Below, one piece after another: positions 1 to 21,124 of a stretch of DNA of 55,772 bases (positions within the stretch are counted from its first letter, which is position 1; each line of letters starts with the position of its first letter). The notes beneath the pieces were generated by a model. It made no database searches, was not told the DNA's origin, and saw nothing but the letters and a program-made list of their open reading frames with translations. The DNA comes from an uncultured Candidatus Saccharibacteria bacterium. Lineage in GTDB: Bacteria; Patescibacteriota; Minisyncoccia; Phycocordibacterales; Phycocordibacteraceae. Made by a program: the position numbers and the translations under genes. The stretch is taken from NCBI GenBank assembly GCA_964550425.1, contig CAZJZB010000005.1, forward strand, positions 1 through 55,772. Reading direction: 5' to 3'.

Positions 1-3000
1 AGCGTTTGAATACAGGAGGCGGTTGGCGTTGATGGAGGAGAGGCCGGTGCCGCCGGAGGAGACCGGGAGCGCAGTGGTGAAGCTGGCGGATGCGGCAGAG
101 AGTGCGCCGCTAATGGAGGCAGTACCGGTAGCGGTGAGGTTCGCAAGAGATAGATTGCCGGAGAAGTATCCGTTGCCGTGCACCGAGAGGAGTGATGATG
201 GGCTCGTCGTCCCGATACCGACGTTGCCGCCGAGCGTGGCGAAGTACGCGGAGCCGGTAGAACCGATTTGTGTCGTGGAAGCATTGCCAAGCGTGGTGAG
301 ACCGGTGACGTTGAGGGTGGAGGTGGCGGTGAGTGCTCCGCCGAAGAAAGAGGAGCCGCTGGTGTAGAGGTTGCCTTGGACGGAGAGGAGTTGTGAAGGA
401 GAGGTGGTGCCGATGCCGACATTACCGCTTATTATCATATTCCCTGCGCCAGCATCTGTACCAACATAACTATTACCAAGCGATAAACCTCCCGTTGCAC
501 TTAAACGCATTCTCTCGTTTGTTGCTCCTACTCCATTTGTGGCGAAACGAATCGGATTAGAACCCAACGTAATCATGTTGAGACCGCCGACATCGGAAAT
601 CATGTATCCCTGATTAACTATAAGGCCATTGGTGTTTGTTGTTCCGCCTACACCAAATTCAACCCATCCAGTTCCAGCCAGACCACTGTCATTAAATGCG
701 CGATACCCTGCGGCCCCACTTGCGGAAGAATTTACTATTGCTGTGTATGAAGTTTCAGAGGCTTTAGACCCAGTGATTACCATTGGGATACTCACATTGC
801 TTGTGCTAATTGTTACCGTATTCTCAGTTTGGGAATTTTTTAATTCAAGAACCGAGTCCAGATTTCCGTTGCCTCTCCCGACTGCGAAAGCCAACTTTCC
901 ATTTACATTGTTAGAAGAAATGGAATCGACCACATATCGTATATCCGCAATATTTAAGAATTTAGAACCTTCATAAGCATTCGCACCGAACTCGCCCACA
1001 ATATCATTGGCCACCGATATTGTGGGGCTGGCCAGTGTCCCGCGAGAACCGAAAAGGGCCACATATGGGTAGACGGATGTCCCAGCCGTCTGCGCGTTCC
1101 AACCAGCAAAATTTGATTCTCTACGTATTATCGCGTCCATCGGGGCAGTCACATTGAACGTAGTAATTGGTGCCAAATTTGTACCGTTGCCCACAAGGAT
1201 AGCCGGAAGCGTGAGAGAGTCTCCAGCGTCCACCTGCAGTTTTGCCGCAGGACTCGTGGTGCCGATGCCGACGTTGCCGGTCGGATTGATGTAGAGCGAG
1301 CCAGCCGGAGCGCCCTGATTCACTGTGAAGGCGGTGTTGTGCGCGACGATACCGCCGAAGGCGTACTCGCCTTCGGCGGGAACTTGGAACTTGGAACTTA
1401 GTTCTTGGACGAGCCCCGATGCAAACTCGCGGAGAGAGCGCGTACCTGCCGCATCAAGGCGAGCGAGCGAGAGCGCAAGCTGTTGTACGAGTCCGTCTTC
1501 AACATCCCGAGATCTCTCGCGAGAGTCAGTGTCGTCAGCGTCTCGTTCAACGATCCGAGCGATATTGTCAAAAATCGCGCGAAGTCCGTCTTGCTCTGCC
1601 TGCCCTGCCCCTCCGCGATGTTGAGTGGTACCGAGAGAACCGCGCGACGCAATTGGCTTATTATTCCGAATTGCTCCGACTTCGGAAACGCCAAAGAAAC
1701 TTTGTATACATCTCGCGAGAGTGTCATCGCTTCCTGCCAAACGCGCAGCTTTTCGTAGTTTGGTTGCAAGTTCGCATCTTCGTTCATTGCTATCAGTGTA
1801 TTCCGCTAAGCTCCAAGCTCCAAGCTCCAAGCTCTGTCGCAGGACAACAAGCTCTTCCTGCTCGGACGTGAGCGCAGTATTCGTCCGAGCGTCTATATAA
1901 TGTCCTGCGATGAAATTATGCGTGCCCTCTATTTCAACGTCATAGACATCTTCTTCAGCGACCGATTCGACGGAAACGATGCGGTCCCAAATGCCGCCGC
2001 CGTCCGCGGCGGCGGCGATTTCCATACCCTCTTTCAGCTCCGATACTTTGAGCCAGGAACCCTCGCCTGCGCGGACGTTATCCACACCAGTTTTGGAGAT
2101 GCTTGACAGCCCAAGCAGGTCGGCTATACTCGTATTACCTTTCTTCAAGACCCGCCCGCGAGGCGGGTTTTGCGTTACCGCATCACCTCCTATCAGAAGG
2201 CCGGATATGAATTTATTAAACAGACCGAGCGTCACGAATTTGCCAGCGGCGAGCAAAAGTTCACCTGATAGATACTTGCGGTCAGAAACAACAGTGACGT
2301 TCTTGCCGAGTTCGCGCAGGTGTTTTACCAACGGCACAAAGTCGCCATCACCGGAGAAAAGTACGAAGTTGTCATACTCATCTGAAAACTTAAGCGCGTC
2401 AGTTGCAATTTCGACATCAAAATTCGCTTTTGGTTGAAGAAGCCGCACTCCTATCATATCGAGTCGCTTGGCCTCGCGCAAAAGATTTGTACGAAGATTA
2501 ACGGGCAACGCTTCAATCCAGCGACGATTGAAAGGCTTCTGAAGTAAACCGAGAAAACTGATATTAAAATACTGGACGGGTTTTGTAACAACCGTGTAGC
2601 CGAAGGAGGTAATCTTTGCGAAGAATGAAGATGATTTTTCGTTACGTATATCAGTACCGTAATAGAAACGAATCGCCGTAATACCAGCGGCAAAGAGCGT
2701 ATCATAGAGCACTTCCAGATCAATAGTTCGATAACCGCGATCGCGATACCCAGCTTTTATATTCGCAAAGTCGATAAATGCTACAGAACGCGAAAGGCCA
2801 CGAGCGATGCTCGTAGCCTCTCCGTAGGCAGGACGAGATGCGAATCCAGCAGCAACCAACTTTTTAAGCCGGCTCGCATCTCTTTCCCCGTACTGTCCTC
2901 CAGTTCCTGGTAGACCAGAGTGAGCGGATCCAGGGTTGCCTTCACCGCCGGGAACATCTACTGCAACACGCCGCGCCAGATACGGATGATTCGCCGTGGT

Positions 3001-5838
3001 GCGGATTGACTTCCCCGAGGCCGTGGTGAGTTTGTACGTCTGCTTTGTGCCCATGTATGCGAGACGCTTCACTTTTGACCACACAAGCTCACCTGTTTTT
3101 TCATCAAGCGATTGAATCTCGTCACTTTCTTTAATATTGATGATTTCAACTTCGTCATACACATACACATCATCAGCGAAATATGCACGACCGGCATGAT
3201 ACACTCTACGCAAGCCGGCAGCTCGGTGCGGGATCAGGTTTGTCACTCTGTGTCCCGAGGGTTCGATTCCCTCTGCCGGCTTGATTAGGTTATCCACAGG
3301 ACCATTTTGCGTACTTGACGTGGAAAACCAGTTTGCTATACTCCCTTTGACAAACCTGGTCCATCCGCCCGAGTGGGACATACGAGGGGAATCGCCATCC
3401 GCAAGGGTGGCGGTTTCCTTTTCCGCTCCGTCTTTCGGTTCTTCATAGAATTCCCAACCGGCGTCTTCAAGGTCCTTCTTGCTGCGACGCCGCCGCAACT
3501 TCGTATCCCCCGTCACGCACTGCCCCGCGACGAAGCCGCCGGCGAAGGTGCTGGTTGCCGTCGTGGATGTTGCAAAGAAATTCTGGGCGACAACTTGGCC
3601 CGCGACCGAGAGCAGTGAGTACGGACTCGTCGTCCCGATGCCGACGTTGCCTCCGGTGGTGGCGAGGTACGTATTCCCTGTTACAGTAAGTTGCGTTGTT
3701 GAAGCATTGCTATTGAATTGTTGAAGCGCGGTCCATGTGTTTGCATTGCCGAGATTGAGCGAGAGGGTTGTCGCTGAACCGCCCACGAGTGCGCCAAGAG
3801 AACCAGAAGAAGAGAGCGAGGAACCGACCGCGACGGATGAGGTGGCGACTGTAGAGAAGTTTCCATAATGAAGCTGGTCGCTTGTGAAAGACGTTTGGCC
3901 GGTGCCGCCGTTCCCAACCGCGAGCGTGCCGGTGATGTCTGTCCCGAGATTAACGAGAGCGGTTGCGACGCTTCCTGCGGTCGCTTTGAGGAAGCCGGAG
4001 AGGTTAGCAATGGATAGATTGGAGGTGAAGAGATTTGAGGATGAGGCGGTTGTTGCGAAAAAGTTGGTTGTGGTTGCGTTTGTGGTCGTGCTGTTGATCG
4101 CGAGGAGGTTCGGAAACGTATTGTTTGCCGTGGTGGTCGCGGTGAAGTATGCTGCCACCGTTTCGCCAACAACCGACAATTTTGCGTATGGCGAGGTAGT
4201 GCCGATGCCGACGTTGCTTTCGGAGGAAATGCTGAGTGTGGAGGTTGCGGTCAGAGTCGTGCCGACGTATGAAAGTGTCTGGCCTGCCGTACCGGAAGGA
4301 AGAGAGCCGGAGGAAAGACAAGTGCCGTTGACGGCGTAGCATTGGTTGGCGGGAATGTTGATGCCGTTGCCATAGAAGGTGGTGGTGCCGGTGGTGAAGT
4401 TGGCGATGCCTTCGATGGAGAGGAGTGAGCCGGGGGTGGTGGTGCCGATGCCGACAGAGCCGTTCTCAAGTACGGTGAAGAGTGTTGTTGAAGCGGAGTT
4501 TACGAAATTGACGAGTTTAGTTGAGCCAGTGCCAGCACCCCAGACGGTTAGTTTTGCATACGGGGTGGTAGTGCCAATGCCAAGATTGGTCCCATCAAAA
4601 ATCAAATTCGAGCTGTTGGCAAACCCTGAACCGTCAAAGTACTCGACACCGTTTGTCACCCCGCCGGTAGTAGTGCCCGTACCGCCATTTGCAATAGGGA
4701 GTGCTAAGCCGCTGTATGAGACAGTGAACGTACCCGCTGATGTGATAGGAGAGCCCGAGACAGAAAGGAATGAGGGGACCGATATTCCAGCGGAAGTAAT
4801 ACCTGTGCTGATACCGCCGCTAACAATGACGGCTCTGCCGCCGGTAGCAGAAATAATCGGGTGCTCCGGTGTGCCCGTAATAGAAATATTCGTACCGGCA
4901 GTGATTGAGTTAATGACGTTTGATGCGAACACGCGACCAGAGCCAGCGTTGATATCGGAATTGCCAGTGTCGATGCCTCCGAGTGTCTGTAGGCGGCCGC
5001 TGAACACCGAGAAACCGAGGGTCCGTAACGCGCCGCCAATCGCTACCGACCCCGCGTTGATATTGGAATTGCTCGTGTCGATGCCTCCGAGTGTCTGCAG
5101 GCGGCCGCTGAACACTGAAGATCCCGAAACTTGGAATGAGCCGTTAATCGCGACCGGGGTATTGATACTGAGGAGAGTGGTGCTTGACGCGTTTTGCGCA
5201 CTGTTGATTTTGTTCACCAAAGGTAACCCTGAGTTTTTTGTACTGGTTGCGGCGACTAATTTTGAATCTGCCGCGGGTGGCGGGGAAGATGTATTCTCGT
5301 TTCCTAATGATCGTACCAGAGCAAGAAGAGATGCGAATGCGGTCTTTACACCGTCGATAGCGGAGACGGAAGAATGTATCAAAAGGGTTGATGCCTCGGA
5401 TAGAATACTCGCAGCACTTTGTGTCGATGCACTTACTGAGATCCGTTCAGGAATTAAAAGTGATTGAACCGTACTATTGACCGTACTGAAGTTTGTTGAA
5501 ACGCTTGCGACAACAGCGACAACAGTGAGAGTCATCGCGATTCTACCAAGGGTTAAGAAAGGGTGTCGAGCACCCATATTCTGACTTGATCGATCACCTT
5601 GGTATTCTATTTTACGTTTTTTCGATAGATCCTCATTCAGATTCTTATTCTGATCCTCTTGCAAATCAATAAATTTCTTAAATGAGAGCTCATCAACATA
5701 CCAGGAATTTCCAATTTTTTCTCCATCTACTTTCCCAAAACGACACATCCTTGATATGTAGTCGTTTGTATATCCTACTCGCCGAGCAAGTTCTTTGGAT
5801 GAAACTAACTGACGATTTAAAAGATTTTTGTTTTTCAT
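1..5838 (-). CDS. Giant surface/fibre-like protein (3'-partial, at least 1946 aa): N-terminal HTH, TM segment, S/T/G-rich GNVGIGTT repeats, contains an intein
   Basis: ATG at 5838. Manual triplet check found no stop down to base 1. Starts MKNKNLLNRQLVSSKELARRVGYTNDYISRMCRFGKVDGEKIGNSWYV; hydrophobic LTLGRIAMTLTVVAVVASV; seven xxVGIGTTxP-type repeats. Missing from the ORF track because no stop lies in the window. Confidence 0.95.
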   Translation of the reverse strand, partial: MKNKNLLNRQLVSSKELARRVGYTNDYISRMCRFGKVDGEKIGNSWYVDELSFKKFIDLQEDQNKNLNEDLSKKRKIEYQGDRSSQNMGARHPFLTLGRIAMTLTVVAVVASVSTNFSTVNSTVQSLLIPERISVSASTQSAASILSEASTLLIHSSVSAIDGVKTAFASLLALVRSLGNENTSSPPPAADSKLVAATSTKNSGLPLVNKINSAQNASSTTLLSINTPVAINGSFQVSGSSVFSGRLQTLGGIDTSNSNINAGSVAIGGALRTLGFSVFSGRLQTLGGIDTGNSDINAGSGRVFASNVINSITAGTNISITGTPEHPIISATGGRAVIVSGGISTGITSAGISVPSFLSVSGSPITSAGTFTVSYSGLALPIANGGTGTTTGGVTNGVEYFDGSGFANSSNLIFDGTNLGIGTTTPYAKLTVWGAGTGSTKLVNFVNSASTTLFTVLENGSVGIGTTTPGSLLSIEGIANFTTGTTTFYGNGINIPANQCYAVNGTCLSSGSLPSGTAGQTLSYVGTTLTATSTLSISSESNVGIGTTSPYAKLSVVGETVAAYFTATTTANNTFPNLLAINSTTTNATTTNFFATTASSSNLFTSNLSIANLSGFLKATAGSVATALVNLGTDITGTLAVGNGGTGQTSFTSDQLHYGNFSTVATSSVAVGSSLSSSGSLGALVGGSATTLSLNLGNANTWTALQQFNSNASTTQLTVTGNTYLATTGGNVGIGTTSPYSLLSVAGQVVAQNFFATSTTATSTFAGGFVAGQCVTGDTKLRRRRSKKDLEDAGWEFYEEPKDGAEKETATLADGDSPRMSHSGGWTRFVKGSIANWFSTSSTQNGPVDNLIKPAEGIEPSGHRVTNLIPHRAAGLRRVYHAGRAYFADDVYVYDEVEIINIKESDEIQSLDEKTGELVWSKVKRLAYMGTKQTYKLTTASGKSIRTTANHPYLARRVAVDVPGGEGNPGSAHSGLPGTGGQYGERDASRLKKLVAAGFASRPAYGEATSIARGLSRSVAFIDFANIKAGYRDRGYRTIDLEVLYDTLFAAGITAIRFYYGTDIRNEKSSSFFAKITSFGYTVVTKPVQYFNISFLGLLQKPFNRRWIEALPVNLRTNLLREAKRLDMIGVRLLQPKANFDVEIATDALKFSDEYDNFVLFSGDGDFVPLVKHLRELGKNVTVVSDRKYLSGELLLAAGKFVTLGLFNKFISGLLIGGDAVTQNPPRGRVLKKGNTSIADLLGLSSISKTGVDNVRAGEGSWLKVSELKEGMEIAAAADGGGIWDRIVSVESVAEEDVYDVEIEGTHNFIAGHYIDARTNTALTSEQEELVVLRQSLELGAWSLAEYTDSNERRCELATKLRKAARLAGSDDTLARCIQSFFGVSEVGAIRNNKPIASRGSLGTTQHRGGAGQAEQDGLRAIFDNIARIVERDADDTDSRERSRDVEDGLVQQLALSLARLDAAGTRSLREFASGLVQELSSKFQVPAEGEYAFGGIVAHNTAFTVNQGAPAGSLYINPTGNVGIGTTSPAAKLQVDAGDSLTLPAILVGNGTNLAPITTFNVTAPMDAIIRRESNFAGWNAQTAGTSVYPYVALFGSRGTLASPTISVANDIVGEFGANAYEGSKFLNIADIRYVVDSISSNNVNGKLAFAVGRGNGNLDSVLELKNSQTENTVTISTSNVSIPMVITGSKASETSYTAIVNSSASGAAGYRAFNDSGLAGTGWVEFGVGGTTNTNGLIVNQGYMISDVGGLNMITLGSNPIRFATNGVGATNERMRLSATGGLSLGNSYVGTDAGAGNMIISGNVGIGTTSPSQLLSVQGNLYTSGSSFFGGALTATSTLNVTGLTTLGNASTTQIGSTGSAYFATLGGNVGIGTTSPSSLLSVHGNGYFSGNLSLANLTATGTASISGALSAASASFTTALPVSSGGTGLSSINANRLLYSNA
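1352..1379. repeat. 28-bp palindrome (REP-like), family member 1
   Basis: ccgccgaaggcg-tact-cgccttcggcgg, perfect 12-bp stem; similar element at 54069-54096. Confidence 0.8.
1379..1401. repeat. Heptamer tandem array (GGAACTT)x3+AG, downstream arm of the stem enclosing the four-helix gene
   Basis: ggaacttggaacttggaacttag; inverted relative to 1806-1828. Confidence 0.9.
1398..1787 (-). CDS. Four helix bundle protein (23S rRNA IVS protein / Avd-like family), nested out of frame inside the intein
   Basis: YEKLRVWQEAM..FPKSEQFGIISQLRRAVLSVPLNIAEGQGR..FLTISLGSLNET is the family signature; own ATG and TAA. Confidence 0.92.
   Translation of the reverse strand: MNEDANLQPNYEKLRVWQEAMTLSRDVYKVSLAFPKSEQFGIISQLRRAVLSVPLNIAEGQGRQSKTDFARFLTISLGSLNETLTTLTLARDLGMLKTDSYNSLRSRSLALMRQVRALSASLHRGSSKN
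1806..1834. repeat. Heptamer tandem array (AAGCTCC)x~4, upstream arm of the stem
   Basis: ctaagctccaagctccaagctccaagctc; reverse complement of 1806-1828 matches 1379-1401 at 20/23. Confidence 0.9.
2078..2130 (+). promoter_or_regulatory. DnaA-box-like 9-mer plus sigma70-type promoter, antisense inside the intein (module A)
   Basis: TTATCCACA(2078-2086)-N16-TTGACA(2103-2108)-N16-TATACT(2125-2130). Confidence 0.7.
2146..2172 (+). terminator. Terminator-like hairpin of module A
   Basis: caagacccgcc-cgcga-ggcgggttttg; the G-U pair and GCGA loop favour the + strand. Confidence 0.6.
2224..2784 (-). other. NYN (LabA/DUF88, PIN-like RNase) domain in frame within the intein
   Basis: VAFIDFANI...RFYYG...KANFDVEIATDAL...FVLFSGDGDFVPLVKHLRELGKNVTVVS; the acidic catalytic motifs are present. 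Confidence 0.9.
3211..3283 (+). ncRNA. tRNA-like structure (acceptor stem plus T-arm, reduced D-arm, GTC-containing loop)
   Basis: caagccggca/tgccggcttg 10-bp stem stacked on GAGGG-TTCGATT-CCCTC; CAGG-TTTGTCAC-TCTG arm; TGaTACACT extended -10-like motif at 3197-3205. Confidence 0.55.
3290..3342 (+). promoter_or_regulatory. DnaA-box-like 9-mer plus sigma70-type promoter, antisense inside the intein (module B)
   Basis: TTATCCACA(3290-3298)-N16-TTGACG(3315-3320)-N16-TATACT(3337-3342), with extended TG; same spacing as module A. Confidence 0.72.
3348..3422 (+). ncRNA. Putative ~75-nt small RNA
   Basis: Lies between promoter B and an intrinsic terminator; 5' end is estimated. Confidence 0.5.
3387..3422 (+). 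terminator. Intrinsic terminator of module B
   Basis: gggaatcgccatcc-GCAA-gggtggcggtttcc-tttt; 14-bp stem with three G-U pairs valid only on the + strand; GNRA loop. Confidence 0.75.
4946..5115. repeat. Intragenic direct repeat, ~62 bp x2, period 108 nt
   Basis: 4946-5007 vs 5054-5115; encodes VFSGRLQTLGGIDTxNSxINAG twice. Confidence 0.85.
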
Positions 5839-5869
5839 CAGTGTCCAAAGAAACGAATTAACTATATAC

Positions 5870-6308
5870 TATCAGTATTTTATAGTTCGTCTGTGTAAAA
5901 TGTAAGATAGTTGTGGATAATAATAAATAAACACTTAATTTCCTTTTGAGTAGCTATAAACTTGTTGGTATTTGTTTGATAGCTAACTGGAGTAGTAAGC
6001 ACGGTATGAAAGTTTGTAATCATGGATTTAAGTAATACTAATCGGATTAAGAAAATATAATGACCATACCTAAATATGCAATAATTAATATAGTAAGCCA
6101 TATCTCATCTTGCACATATCGTCTACACGAGATGAGATATCCATATAAACATTGATTAAAATTGTTTTTACTACTGATACGGATTTGATTCTTACTATTT
6201 TATAGATATTGTTATGAATTTTTGTCTCGCGGATTAAAACTGAACCTGCGCAACATTATAGAAAGACGAACTGTCTATATAATATCAGTATTTTATAGTT
6301 CGTCTGTG
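5870..6308. repeat. 26-bp perfect direct repeat at both ends of an AT-rich intergenic region
   Basis: tatcagtattttatagttcgtctgtg at 5870-5895 and 6283-6308; DnaA-box-like TGTGGATAA at 5912-5920; 11-bp inverted repeat 6100-6110/6130-6140. Confidence 0.85.
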
Positions 6309-6337
6309 CAAAATAAGAATCCAGCTGAATTCCCTGA

Positions 6338-6601
6338 TTAGATATCACTATATATCTCTACTTTATTGTTTTTAACACTAAGAACGGCGGTCTTGTATCT
6401 AAATGTCTGATCTTCTTTCATTCTTGCTCGTATGACAATTGGCTCATTTTTTATCATGGTTACGAAATTGGCATGCCCCGGTAGAACATCAAACTGACCA
6501 GCACTATTTGCTGATGAGACGCTGTACGCCACCCCTTCCCAAATACGCTCCTCTGCATTACTAATTGACACCGCAAATTCTTCGACTTGCTGTTGCTTCA
6601 T
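6338..6601 (-). CDS. atpC: F1 ATPase epsilon-like subunit (N-terminal beta-sandwich only)
   Basis: GQFDVLPGHANFVT motif; follows atpD; 87 aa. Confidence 0.85.
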   Translation of the reverse strand: MKQQQVEEFAVSISNAEERIWEGVAYSVSSANSAGQFDVLPGHANFVTMIKNEPIVIRARMKEDQTFRYKTAVLSVKNNKVEIYSDI

Positions 6602-20940: not shown

Positions 20941-21074
20941 GGTGGTTGCAAATTAGAAATTGTGGTTGATATGTCGACCCGTCTGTGCGCGAGGAAAATT
21001 TCTCATGCGCAAACGTTTCTACATATCATTATCGCGCGTAAAAAAACTTTGTGTGACAAAAAAATATAAAGTGT

Positions 21075-21124
21075 GGATAACTTTCATAAAAAATTCATCG
21101 ATGAATTTTTTATGAAAGTTATCC
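21075..21124. repeat. Perfect 50-bp palindrome with no spacer
   Basis: ggataactttcataaaaaattcatc/gatgaattttttatgaaagttatcc; overlaps the murB stop and a DnaA-box-like 9-mer (21072-21080). Confidence 0.9.

Follow-up and report, generated by a model that had tools for sequence, protein, structure and literature searches.

The window analysed here is a stretch of 55,772 nucleotides (nt) from contig CAZJZB010000005.1 of an uncultured Candidatus Saccharibacteria bacterium (assembly GCA_964550425.1). It begins with a giant open reading frame (ORF) on the minus strand which is interrupted by an intein, and antisense to the intein coding sequence lie two promoter-like modules, A and B, each combining a DnaA-box consensus with a -35 and a -10 hexamer. 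In this study, we put forward, with a probability of roughly 0.65, that both modules are promoters of the housekeeping type of this lineage (TTGACA, 16-17 nt, TATACT) with the box 16 nt upstream, and that each heads a small RNA unit under nucleic-acid selection; this estimate includes the roles proposed below for the two units. Comparison of related copies establishes that the modules are conserved in the way of promoters, which structures the RNAs form, which strand they are read from, and that the cassette around module B is a discrete unit. An initial annotation of the window had interpreted the modules as sources of possibly DnaA-regulated antisense transcripts, and this interpretation as a whole is partly supported. 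Its proposal of conserved sigma70-type promoters followed by structured, hairpin-ended + strand RNAs inside a coding gene is supported by the comparison of sequences; it missed the two-RNA cassette of module B, the place of module A in the tail of an NYN nuclease gene and the fact that the codon register of the modules is forced. The genome under study (G000; 737,994 bases in 28 contigs, scored 100 % complete) stems from a groundwater bacterium and has the size of a candidate phyla radiation (CPR) genome.

Module A spans 2077-2131 on the + strand, with the DnaA box at 2078-2086, the -35 hexamer TTGACA at 2103-2108 and the -10 hexamer TATACT at 2125-2130. Module B, the predicted promoter of an RNA termed RNA2, spans 3289-3343 on the same strand, with the box at 3290-3298, the -35 hexamer TTGACG at 3315-3320 and a TG-extended -10 hexamer TATACT at 3337-3342. 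Both are exact instances of the annotated composite GTTATCCACA-N16-TTGACR-N16-TATACTC and their spacers agree in length and differ in sequence. The 9-mer TTATCCACA is the exact DnaA-box consensus in both modules, the -35/-10 spacer is 16 nt in both, and the -10 hexamer keeps A2 and T6. TTGACA and TATAAT are the sigma70 consensus hexamers, and a consensus scan of positions 1-6500 scores module A 11/12 and module B 10/12 with TG, both within the top three of eight sites. None of 100 dinucleotide shuffles contains the spaced motif. Scanned genome-wide, it matches only at these two places in 737,994 bases, and the reversed control gives no match.

Whether such sites belong to the promoter repertoire of the lineage was approached by scanning a 596-Gb collection, one genome per species, for TTATCCACA-N15-CTTGAC-N17-TAnnnT. 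The pattern matches 46 loci, 31 of which bear Patescibacteria-type labels; by our arithmetic chance would give about 17 matches over the whole collection, of which Patescibacteria-type genomes form a small share. Many of the 46 loci are intergenic. In an alignment of eight copies, six have a long leader and the beginning of an ORF in common, the ORF of one of them (L101) being RpoB (tblastn to G000; Pfam RNA_pol_Rpb2_1). A metagenome scan with the fixed pattern gave 96 loci, 80 of which were taken up (L155-L158 were left out). These include intergenic copies with tandem boxes and several copies with an ATG, by eye, 6-7 nt past the -10, a leaderless signature; judged from the sequence, such genes appear to be leaderless in CPR bacteria. 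Independently of the motif, a protein search across 30 families of the order supplied rpoB upstream regions, 21 of them with a usable anchor. TTGAC-N17-19-TAYAMT, mostly with TATACT, precedes rpoB in 17 of the 21; an exact TTATCCACA lies within 520 nt upstream in five and the full composite is found in three. Because of these counts, we regard TTGACA/TATACT as the housekeeping consensus of the lineage and the box as an occasional upstream addition. G000 itself has 17 strong-consensus sites (mean of 20 shuffles 5.25, maximum 12), modules A and B being two of them, and its own rpoB promoter is a degenerate relative of the composite. The composite as such was rejected as the general promoter type of G000, only 2 of its 19 TTATCCACA boxes carrying it. 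Judged by titles and abstract openings, no work describing this TTATCCACA/promoter type in Patescibacteria was found.

Several of these loci carry further conserved sequence. The rpoB leader of several Paceibacteria-type metagenome-assembled genomes (L082, L083, L088, L101, L105, L111) is conserved for about 250-300 nt downstream of the composite promoter (..TTTACTATTGA.CGATTGAGTT.TGGCTTGTCAATGG..) and has no Rfam match. In other CPR genomes (L072, L144, L191 and L077, L173) the composite is followed by conserved sequences of about 75 nt that end in a terminator hairpin (..GTACTTGAGTTGTAGCTTGCTATAACTTAAGTAC..) and are probably further small RNA genes; neither L072 nor L077, the two scanned, matches Rfam. 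An Rfam scan of 20 intergenic promoter loci returned one ordinary tRNA as its sole match. A 'Woesearchaeota archaeon' record (L083 versus L096) is identical to a Zambryskibacteria record over the promoter region of about 215 nt, which suggests a mis-binned contig.

Within the genus, 222 genomes were scanned with the composite pattern at up to two mismatches. This yielded 20 places in 14 genomes and none in the controls: eight resemble module A (class A), seven resemble module B (class B) and five are other. The placement of the modules inside the intein, as annotated, is correct, but it is one of several contexts, the others being free-standing NYN genes, a giant surface protein, an intein of an SMC-like protein and intergenic DNA. 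Class A units are always antisense, either to the tail of free-standing NYN ORFs of 210-245 amino acids (aa) or, in inteins, to the stretch just before the C-terminal Hint half. In the window, module A is followed by the hairpin of the predicted A-RNA (2146-2172, +), which has 11 bp, a CGCGA loop and a following TTTTGCGTT; it is intrinsic-terminator-like, and a terminator scan lists 2154-2168. Hairpins had been annotated after both modules and are present after both; the GNRA loop ascribed to each holds for module B (GCAA), whereas the CGCGA pentaloop of A is not strictly GNRA. The predicted A-RNA (2138-2180) folds with -18.6 kcal/mol on the + strand versus -16.5 on the minus strand, and across class A the hairpins are more stable on the + strand in 15/15. 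A scripted T count after these hairpins succeeded in 3/15, RNAfold pairing the Us with upstream As; by direct reading a T-rich run follows every GC stem.

The variation of class A units shows a constraint on the nucleic acid and not on the peptide. The -10 occurs as TATACT, TATAAT, TACAAT, TATAGT or TATATT, keeping T1, A2 and T6 while switching the encoded residue to S, I, T or N, and the sixth base of the -35 is free. Synonymous identity among five NYN ORFs reaches 96/96 in the hairpin and 0.77-0.9 in the module, against about 0.45-0.74 elsewhere or in the domain; the class A position holds five different hairpin sequences. A search with the NYN protein only (222 genomes, E <= 1e-25) gave six genomes, five of them already known and the sixth being G155. 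In these protein-defined homologues the -10 and the hairpin are kept in 6/6 and the whole composite in 5/6, the NYN intein tail of G155 having a perfect TATAAT and a compensated hairpin. The G155 intein (L257, G155:C1:914060-917644) bears the NYN domain and sits in the P-loop (GPNGSGK/C...) of an SMC-like ATPase; because of this host, the unit of intein, NYN domain and antisense tail can be said to occupy unrelated host genes. At another locus (L064; G001:C38, 1-5463) the host gene is 'fractured': the N-extein with the N-terminal intein half (Int-N) ends in a stop, and the C-terminal half (Int-C) with the C-extein comes last. Five ORFs lie between the halves on the same strand, namely NYN (with the module), an ORF of 65 aa, a MazF/PemK-like ORF (21 bits, below the curated cut-off), one of 471 aa that matches PD-(D/E)XK weakly and one of 162 aa.

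Module B belongs to a larger structure. Seven aligned copies define class B as a discrete unit of about 235 nt with unrelated flanks, in which RNA1, tRNA-like and preceded by an extended -10, is followed by the module, then by RNA2, opening with the complement of the RNA1 arm, and finally by a GC hairpin and a T tract. In the window its left edge is a putative RNA1 promoter, the extended -10 TGATACACT at 3197-3205 (+), 7 nt before RNA1; its TGnTAnnnT is kept, by eye, in most of the seven copies. RNA1 (3213-3283, +) resembles a tRNA without D arm; its elements are an 8-bp acceptor stem, a GG-containing connector, a long arm whose loop reads TTTGTCA, and a T arm of canonical form. Arm and loop include the left arm of a 15-bp inverted repeat (3231-3245, +; 93 %) which pairs with the RNA2 5' end. 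RNA2 (3348-3425, +) consists of this complementary 5' segment (3348-3362), a small hairpin, the putative terminator stem and a T tract; the stem (3384-3421, +) has 17 bp, a GCAA loop at 3401-3404 and G.U pairs and is followed by UUUUCC. The segment 3349-3425 folds with -33.5 kcal/mol (z -2.9) on the + strand versus -21.9 (z +0.7) on the minus strand.

Covariation supports these structures. RNAalifold on 14 class B copies predicts the T arm, a 13-bp terminator and a helix of 17 bp in which the RNA1 arm pairs with the RNA2 start. The cells are paired to 95-97 %, versus 36-53 % with the partners slid, and the observed pairing was reached by none of 500 shuffles on four of five measures in a first test, by one of 500 on the fifth (further pair types) and by none of 500 on all five in a second. 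Both partners have changed in 3/8 acceptor pairs, 5/5 pairs of the local arm, 13/17 RNA1:RNA2 pairs and 10/13 terminator pairs. The local arm of RNA1 draws on the same letters as the RNA1:RNA2 helix, which makes the two alternative structures. There are more G.U than A.C cells (41:11 overall, 16:0 in the terminator; the cells are not independent, so that a binomial figure overstates the case), and this identifies the + strand, which is antisense to the ORF, as that of the RNA.

A pattern-free view of the family came from a covariance model (R1) of RNA1 alone, without promoter columns. It matches 21 of 151 genus genomes including G000, whose RNA1 is the best match (92.2 bits), with 32 matches outside G000. 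We read 21 of these 32, namely 19 of the 23 that are not in alignment A3 together with G156:C12 and the second G244 copy, leaving out G133:C3, G133:C23 and G244:C12:10067. ARAGORN identifies five of the 21 (30-33 bits) as ordinary tRNAs. Of the 16 others, 14 continue, by eye, with a TTGAC-type -35, about 16-17 nt, TAnnnT and, after 5-7 nt, the complement of their own loop. The loops vary widely between copies (..CTCGGTAAT.., ..CCTCATCAAG.., ..CTTGGTATC..). An automated count over 32 copies found an exact complement of at least 9 nt in 28 and a correctly placed TTGnnn-N16-18-TAnnnT in 23, all 23 with TTGAC. The scripted finder missed the promoter in the other nine, mostly since the longest exact complement was another segment; by eye seven of these have both hexamers, G077:C9 has only the -35 and G064:C2a neither. 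In two copies a terminator separates RNA1 from the RNA2 promoter, so that RNA1 and RNA2 would be two transcription units. The family comprises at least 32 copies, 1-6 per genome, some of which encode CCA. Outside the genus the model matches 1 of 150 genomes of the order, with the same layout and no box.

RNA1 was also held against known RNAs. It was rejected as a real tRNA, ARAGORN finding none and the D stem being absent from a molecule whose loop has 10-12 nt; nor does it fill a gap in the tRNA set, the 45 tRNAs of G000 covering all 20 amino acids, Asp-GUC included. As a tmRNA domain it was rejected too, there being no tmRNA model match at 3213-3283 and all matches in G000 lying below threshold. 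ARAGORN finds no tmRNA in G000, and the Rfam tmRNA model gives sub-threshold matches only (at most 29.5 bits, gathering score 47). An Rfam scan of 1-6500 gave nothing but a sub-threshold tRNA-Sec match at RNA1 (25.8 bits, gathering score 47), and the RNA1/RNA2 family matches no Rfam family. A literature search, judged by titles and abstract openings, found no tRNA-like/antisense pair in CPR bacteria.

Class B units sit at the same site in the orthologous inteins L160 and L171, at another intein site in L170 and L139, and directly in a giant protein in G079; other copies are intergenic and adjoin groES, EF-G, nusB, dnaE, rpmE and typA. The Int-N of G001 lacks the stretch of about 80 aa that holds the unit in G000. 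A discrete element with unrelated flanks, residing in frame in unrelated genes, is what characterizes miniature transposable elements with inverted repeats (MITEs) and Rickettsia palindromic elements. At the ends of class B units neither terminal inverted repeats nor a target duplication were seen; by eye, G000 has a possible diverged duplication (EFYEEP / YVYDEVE) that is absent from L171. In L170/L171 (one metagenome contig) and L139, the N-terminal Hint half is followed by another stretch resembling translated non-coding DNA (..FFTSVK..S.D.ISRLLGWN.KN.G..), which is shared across unrelated contexts and hints at a further in-frame element.

That such units can reside in ORFs follows from the motif itself. 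On the strand opposite module A the sequence encodes ..TSIADLLGLSSISKTGVDN.., and both modules share one codon register, SIA-x5-SS-x5-VDN in the minus-strand ORF. The initial annotation had pointed out this register. The register is real, but it is forced, because the other two antisense frames contain stops (the complement of GCTATA gives TAG, and that of TTATCCACA gives TAA in the third frame), and therefore not an independent coincidence. Exactly one antisense frame being stop-free, both units are able to reside in ORFs. This frame is open through the core in the six class B copies assessed, and a further copy, that of G079, lies in an open frame of 1043 aa.

We propose the following mechanism. 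Unit A (2077-2172) would be a promoter with a hairpin-ended RNA of about 35-45 nt and form part of the 3' tail of the NYN nuclease gene, with which it would travel, be that gene a separate ORF between the halves of a split intein or an in-frame part of an intein. The A-RNA would be perfectly antisense to the NYN/intein mRNA and most likely damp its expression, by analogy with the IS10 RNA-OUT and with 3'-overlapping type I antitoxin RNAs. Unit B (about 3197-3425) would be a two-gene RNA cassette of about 235 bp inserted in frame after intein block A; module B would fire RNA2, whose single-stranded 5' end may pair with the RNA1 loop and invade the RNA1 arm. What we infer here is that the units are transcribed at all, where their transcripts start, what these regulate and any part that DnaA may play, and the arrangement typical of cis-antisense control, a promoter inside the coding region of the target and a stable stem-loop RNA, is present as a prediction. 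Protein-coding targets on the + strand were considered and rejected for both promoters: no ORF of at least 80 aa starts after 2137 before the hairpin, and the starts of the + strand ORFs 3373-3618 and 3479-3724 fall within the RNA2 terminator or past it.

A number of points weigh against this proposal. The promoters and RNAs are predicted here from DNA sequence, none of the sequencing runs listed for 1900-3600 being recorded as RNA. A predicted A-RNA of 35-45 nt is short for a regulator, and an effect on its target is pure inference. The terminator scan that listed hairpin A did not list hairpin B, and a stop interrupts the register frame of one class B copy in intergenic DNA (L181), so that the open frame is not universal. 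In G155 the -35 is degraded and the box, at 8/9, is shifted by one codon; the box is also absent from 17 of the 32 RNA1/RNA2 cassettes. The RNA1:RNA2 helix shows a weak strand bias (12:8) and can be read as a DNA inverted repeat as well. The copies are related, so that shuffle and binomial figures overstate their independence. Finally, many class A and class B copies were found by a pattern that fixes TTATCCACA, CTTGAC and TAnnnT, and conservation of these letters there is by construction; samples free of this bias include the RNA1 model search, the NYN protein search and the rpoB protein search.

Other explanations have to be weighed against the same evidence. The units may be relics, that is promoter-bearing non-coding DNA such as a small RNA cassette or the end of a once free-standing nuclease gene, captured in frame and tolerated in G000, with conservation reflecting ancestry and function elsewhere. 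This would agree with the class B cassettes that lie in intergenic DNA beside housekeeping genes, with the partial decay of -35 and box in G155 and with the class B copy of the intein, which is inherited, since orthologous inteins (L160, L171) share it; for the G000 locus, moreover, the evidence is the DNA itself. We nevertheless consider it unlikely, as every part is intact in G000 (RNA1 with 92.2 bits, promoters with 11/12 and 10/12, strong hairpins), ORF-embedded copies take full part in the compensatory pattern, and compensation has kept the class A hairpin across NYN subfamilies of about 30-50 % amino-acid identity. That the promoter likeness is a by-product of a conserved intein/NYN linker peptide, SIA-x5-SS-x5-VDN, is very improbable and is largely refuted here. 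The second Ser is indeed kept through a synonymous change (AGT/AGC), and the ORF-embedded copies are all in one frame; but that frame is forced by the stop codons, the residues between the blocks are free, variable hexamer positions cause radical residue changes (S/I/T/N; T/L/E), and the same DNA motif occurs in intergenic promoters. Compensation in the hairpin even rewrites the peptide (NPDLSAGA versus NPPRGRV), and only one of the strands has the G.U pairs.

In the case of module B, a recombination site might be formed by the 15-bp inverted repeat (3231-3245/3348-3362), with the promoter flipping between its arms. The repeat does bracket the module, and the weak strand bias of the helix (12:8) would fit; but its sequence changes from copy to copy yet stays complementary, which is unexpected of a recombinase site, and its right arm always starts 5-7 nt past the -10, like an RNA 5' end. 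No strand-changing joints and no inversion or deletion variants were seen in the contigs of four runs, contigs being known to drop rare variants; many contig 'skips' from 1279 to 3628 are artefacts joining GNVGIGTT repeat units. Altogether, an invertible promoter seems highly improbable. Least probable in our view is that the units primarily bind or titrate DnaA, in the manner of datA, or couple replication to the locus with transcription being secondary. An exact consensus box stands at a fixed distance in both modules, dnaA is present (G000:C9), and G000 has 19 TTATCCACA boxes versus about 5.4 expected. Across the family, however, the box is the least conserved part: a DnaA-like box is found in 15 of 32 cassettes, at variable spacing (7, 16-18), whereas -35, -10 and RNA structures are kept. 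It is exact in five of the six protein-defined class A homologues, much of the wider sample being pattern-ascertained. A role of DnaA at these promoters is thus put forward as a hypothesis. More far-reaching, and in our judgement doubtful, is the idea that RNA1/RNA2 units form a self-contained mobile RNA-only system. RNA1 would be a tRNA mimic which engages the tRNA-handling machinery or serves as decoy for anticodon-directed nucleases (NYN/PIN), each being restrained by its cognate anti-loop RNA; loops would diversify as in incompatibility or addiction systems, the units would spread into coding sequence that tolerates them, for instance that of inteins and giant surface proteins, by means of the open antisense frame, and the DnaA box would tie the firing of the anti-RNA to replication in the subfamily found here.

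The host ORF of the favoured small RNA units (1-5838, minus strand) comprises 1946 aa, is 3'-open and runs off the left end of the window; it encodes a giant repeat-rich surface or tail-fibre-like protein with GNVGIGTTSP-type repeats throughout. The intein (1339-3519, minus strand) extends from Cys774 (CVTGDTKL) to His-Asn1500, is followed by Thr and matches Pfam Intein_splicing (3.8e-12); Cys1, blocks A, B, F and G and the terminal His-Asn before Thr identify it as an intein. Its endonuclease slot, where a homing endonuclease usually sits, is occupied by an NYN domain (2227-2778, minus strand; aa 1021-1204; PF01936, 8.8e-21, 75.4 bits versus a cut-off of 24.2). A literature search found no paper pairing inteins with NYN domains. 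Module A corresponds to aa 1237-1256, between the NYN domain and the C-terminal Hint half, and module B to aa 833-852, in an extra stretch after block A. Besides this insertion the intein has one between blocks F and G: about 180 charged, low-complexity aa (1369-1902, minus strand) separate block F (VYDVEIEGTHNFIAG) from block G (GIVAHN), and the L178 intein has a shorter insertion at the same position.

Elsewhere in the window, within 5877-5920 (minus strand), a third TTATCCACA (5912-5920) lies just upstream of a promoter-like CTTACA-18-TAAAAT and of the giant ORF start at 5838. The AT-rich region upstream of this ORF is flanked by a 49-nt direct repeat (5853-5901 and 6266-6314; 90 % identical) plus inverted repeats. 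Nearly identical stretches of about 90 nt at 21000-21080 (minus strand) and at G000:C2:62399 (+) open with TTATCCACA, followed by TTGTCA...GATAAT; they look like a duplicated region of box plus promoter, unlike the composite of the modules.

If the RNAs are made, complete small RNA genes can nest antisense and in frame within protein-coding sequence, even that of an intein, over the long term, as an overlapping layer of information that gene callers and RNA finders alike miss. RNA1, tRNA-like and without D arm, and RNA2, its dedicated antisense partner, would then constitute a well-supported CPR RNA family, marked by strong covariation, in a group of bacteria whose regulation is almost unknown. 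One order would gain a working promoter consensus, TTGACA-N17-TATACT, sometimes with TTATCCACA upstream. Antisense control, linked to a nuclease-carrying mobile intein, would offer elements of this kind a novel means of keeping their own cost low.

Several known systems resemble the units in part. In IS10, the strong promoter pOUT inside the coding region of the mobile element makes RNA-OUT, a short stable stem-loop RNA antisense to the element's own transposase mRNA. Unit A likewise has a promoter in a coding region and a short predicted stem-loop RNA antisense to the nuclease mRNA of its element. RNA-OUT covers the 5' end of the mRNA and the ribosome-binding site, whereas the A-RNA is predicted to cover the 3' tail of the NYN frame or, in the intein, the middle of a 6-kb host mRNA. 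In the type I toxin-antitoxin pairs txpA/RatA and bsrG/SR4 the antisense RNA gene overlaps the 3' end of the toxic gene. Unit A, too, overlaps the 3' end of a potentially toxic gene, and the MazF/PemK-like ORF below cut-off lies in the neighbouring G001 island; the partner in these pairs is a small membrane peptide, that of unit A an NYN nuclease of about 210 aa, and its predicted RNA has only about 40 nt.

The contact proposed between RNA2 and RNA1 has its counterpart in ColE1 RNA I/II and R1 CopA/CopT, where a tail or loop that is single-stranded first touches the loop of the hairpin partner and strand invasion follows. In the modelled contact the RNA2 tail meets the RNA1 loop, and the specificity loops differ between copies; unlike in ColE1 and R1, RNA1 and RNA2 stand in tandem on the same strand under their own predicted promoters, RNA1 is tRNA-shaped and no replicon is attached. 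The tRNA-like domain of tmRNA and D-arm-less tRNAs combine an acceptor stem and a T arm of canonical form with a connector that contains GG and replaces the D stem. RNA1 shares all three; unlike tmRNA, it has neither a tag reading frame nor a tmRNA model match, and genomes carry many copies of it, which differ in their loops.

Split inteins accompanied by free-standing endonuclease genes are described as fractured genes (PMC2677866), and G001:C38, with Int-N, free-standing ORFs and Int-C of the same host gene, resembles them. Differing from fractured genes as portrayed there, the gene next to the G001 Int-N is an NYN ORF with a putative antisense promoter and hairpin, and the halves are separated by four more ORFs. 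Correia elements and other MITEs with promoters are described as small repeats with sigma70-like promoters and hairpins, the promoters facing outwards onto neighbouring genes (PMC10969869). The class B cassette is similar to these, so described, in carrying putative promoters and hairpins, while its transcripts are predicted to end inside the element. The same review presents Rickettsia palindromic elements as short structured non-coding elements that reside in frame within unrelated protein genes by one open frame (PMC10969869). The class B cassette shares this in-frame residence through one open frame and, unlike the Rickettsia elements in that description, carries putative promoters, a terminator and two candidate RNA genes and is low in copy number, with 1-6 per genome.

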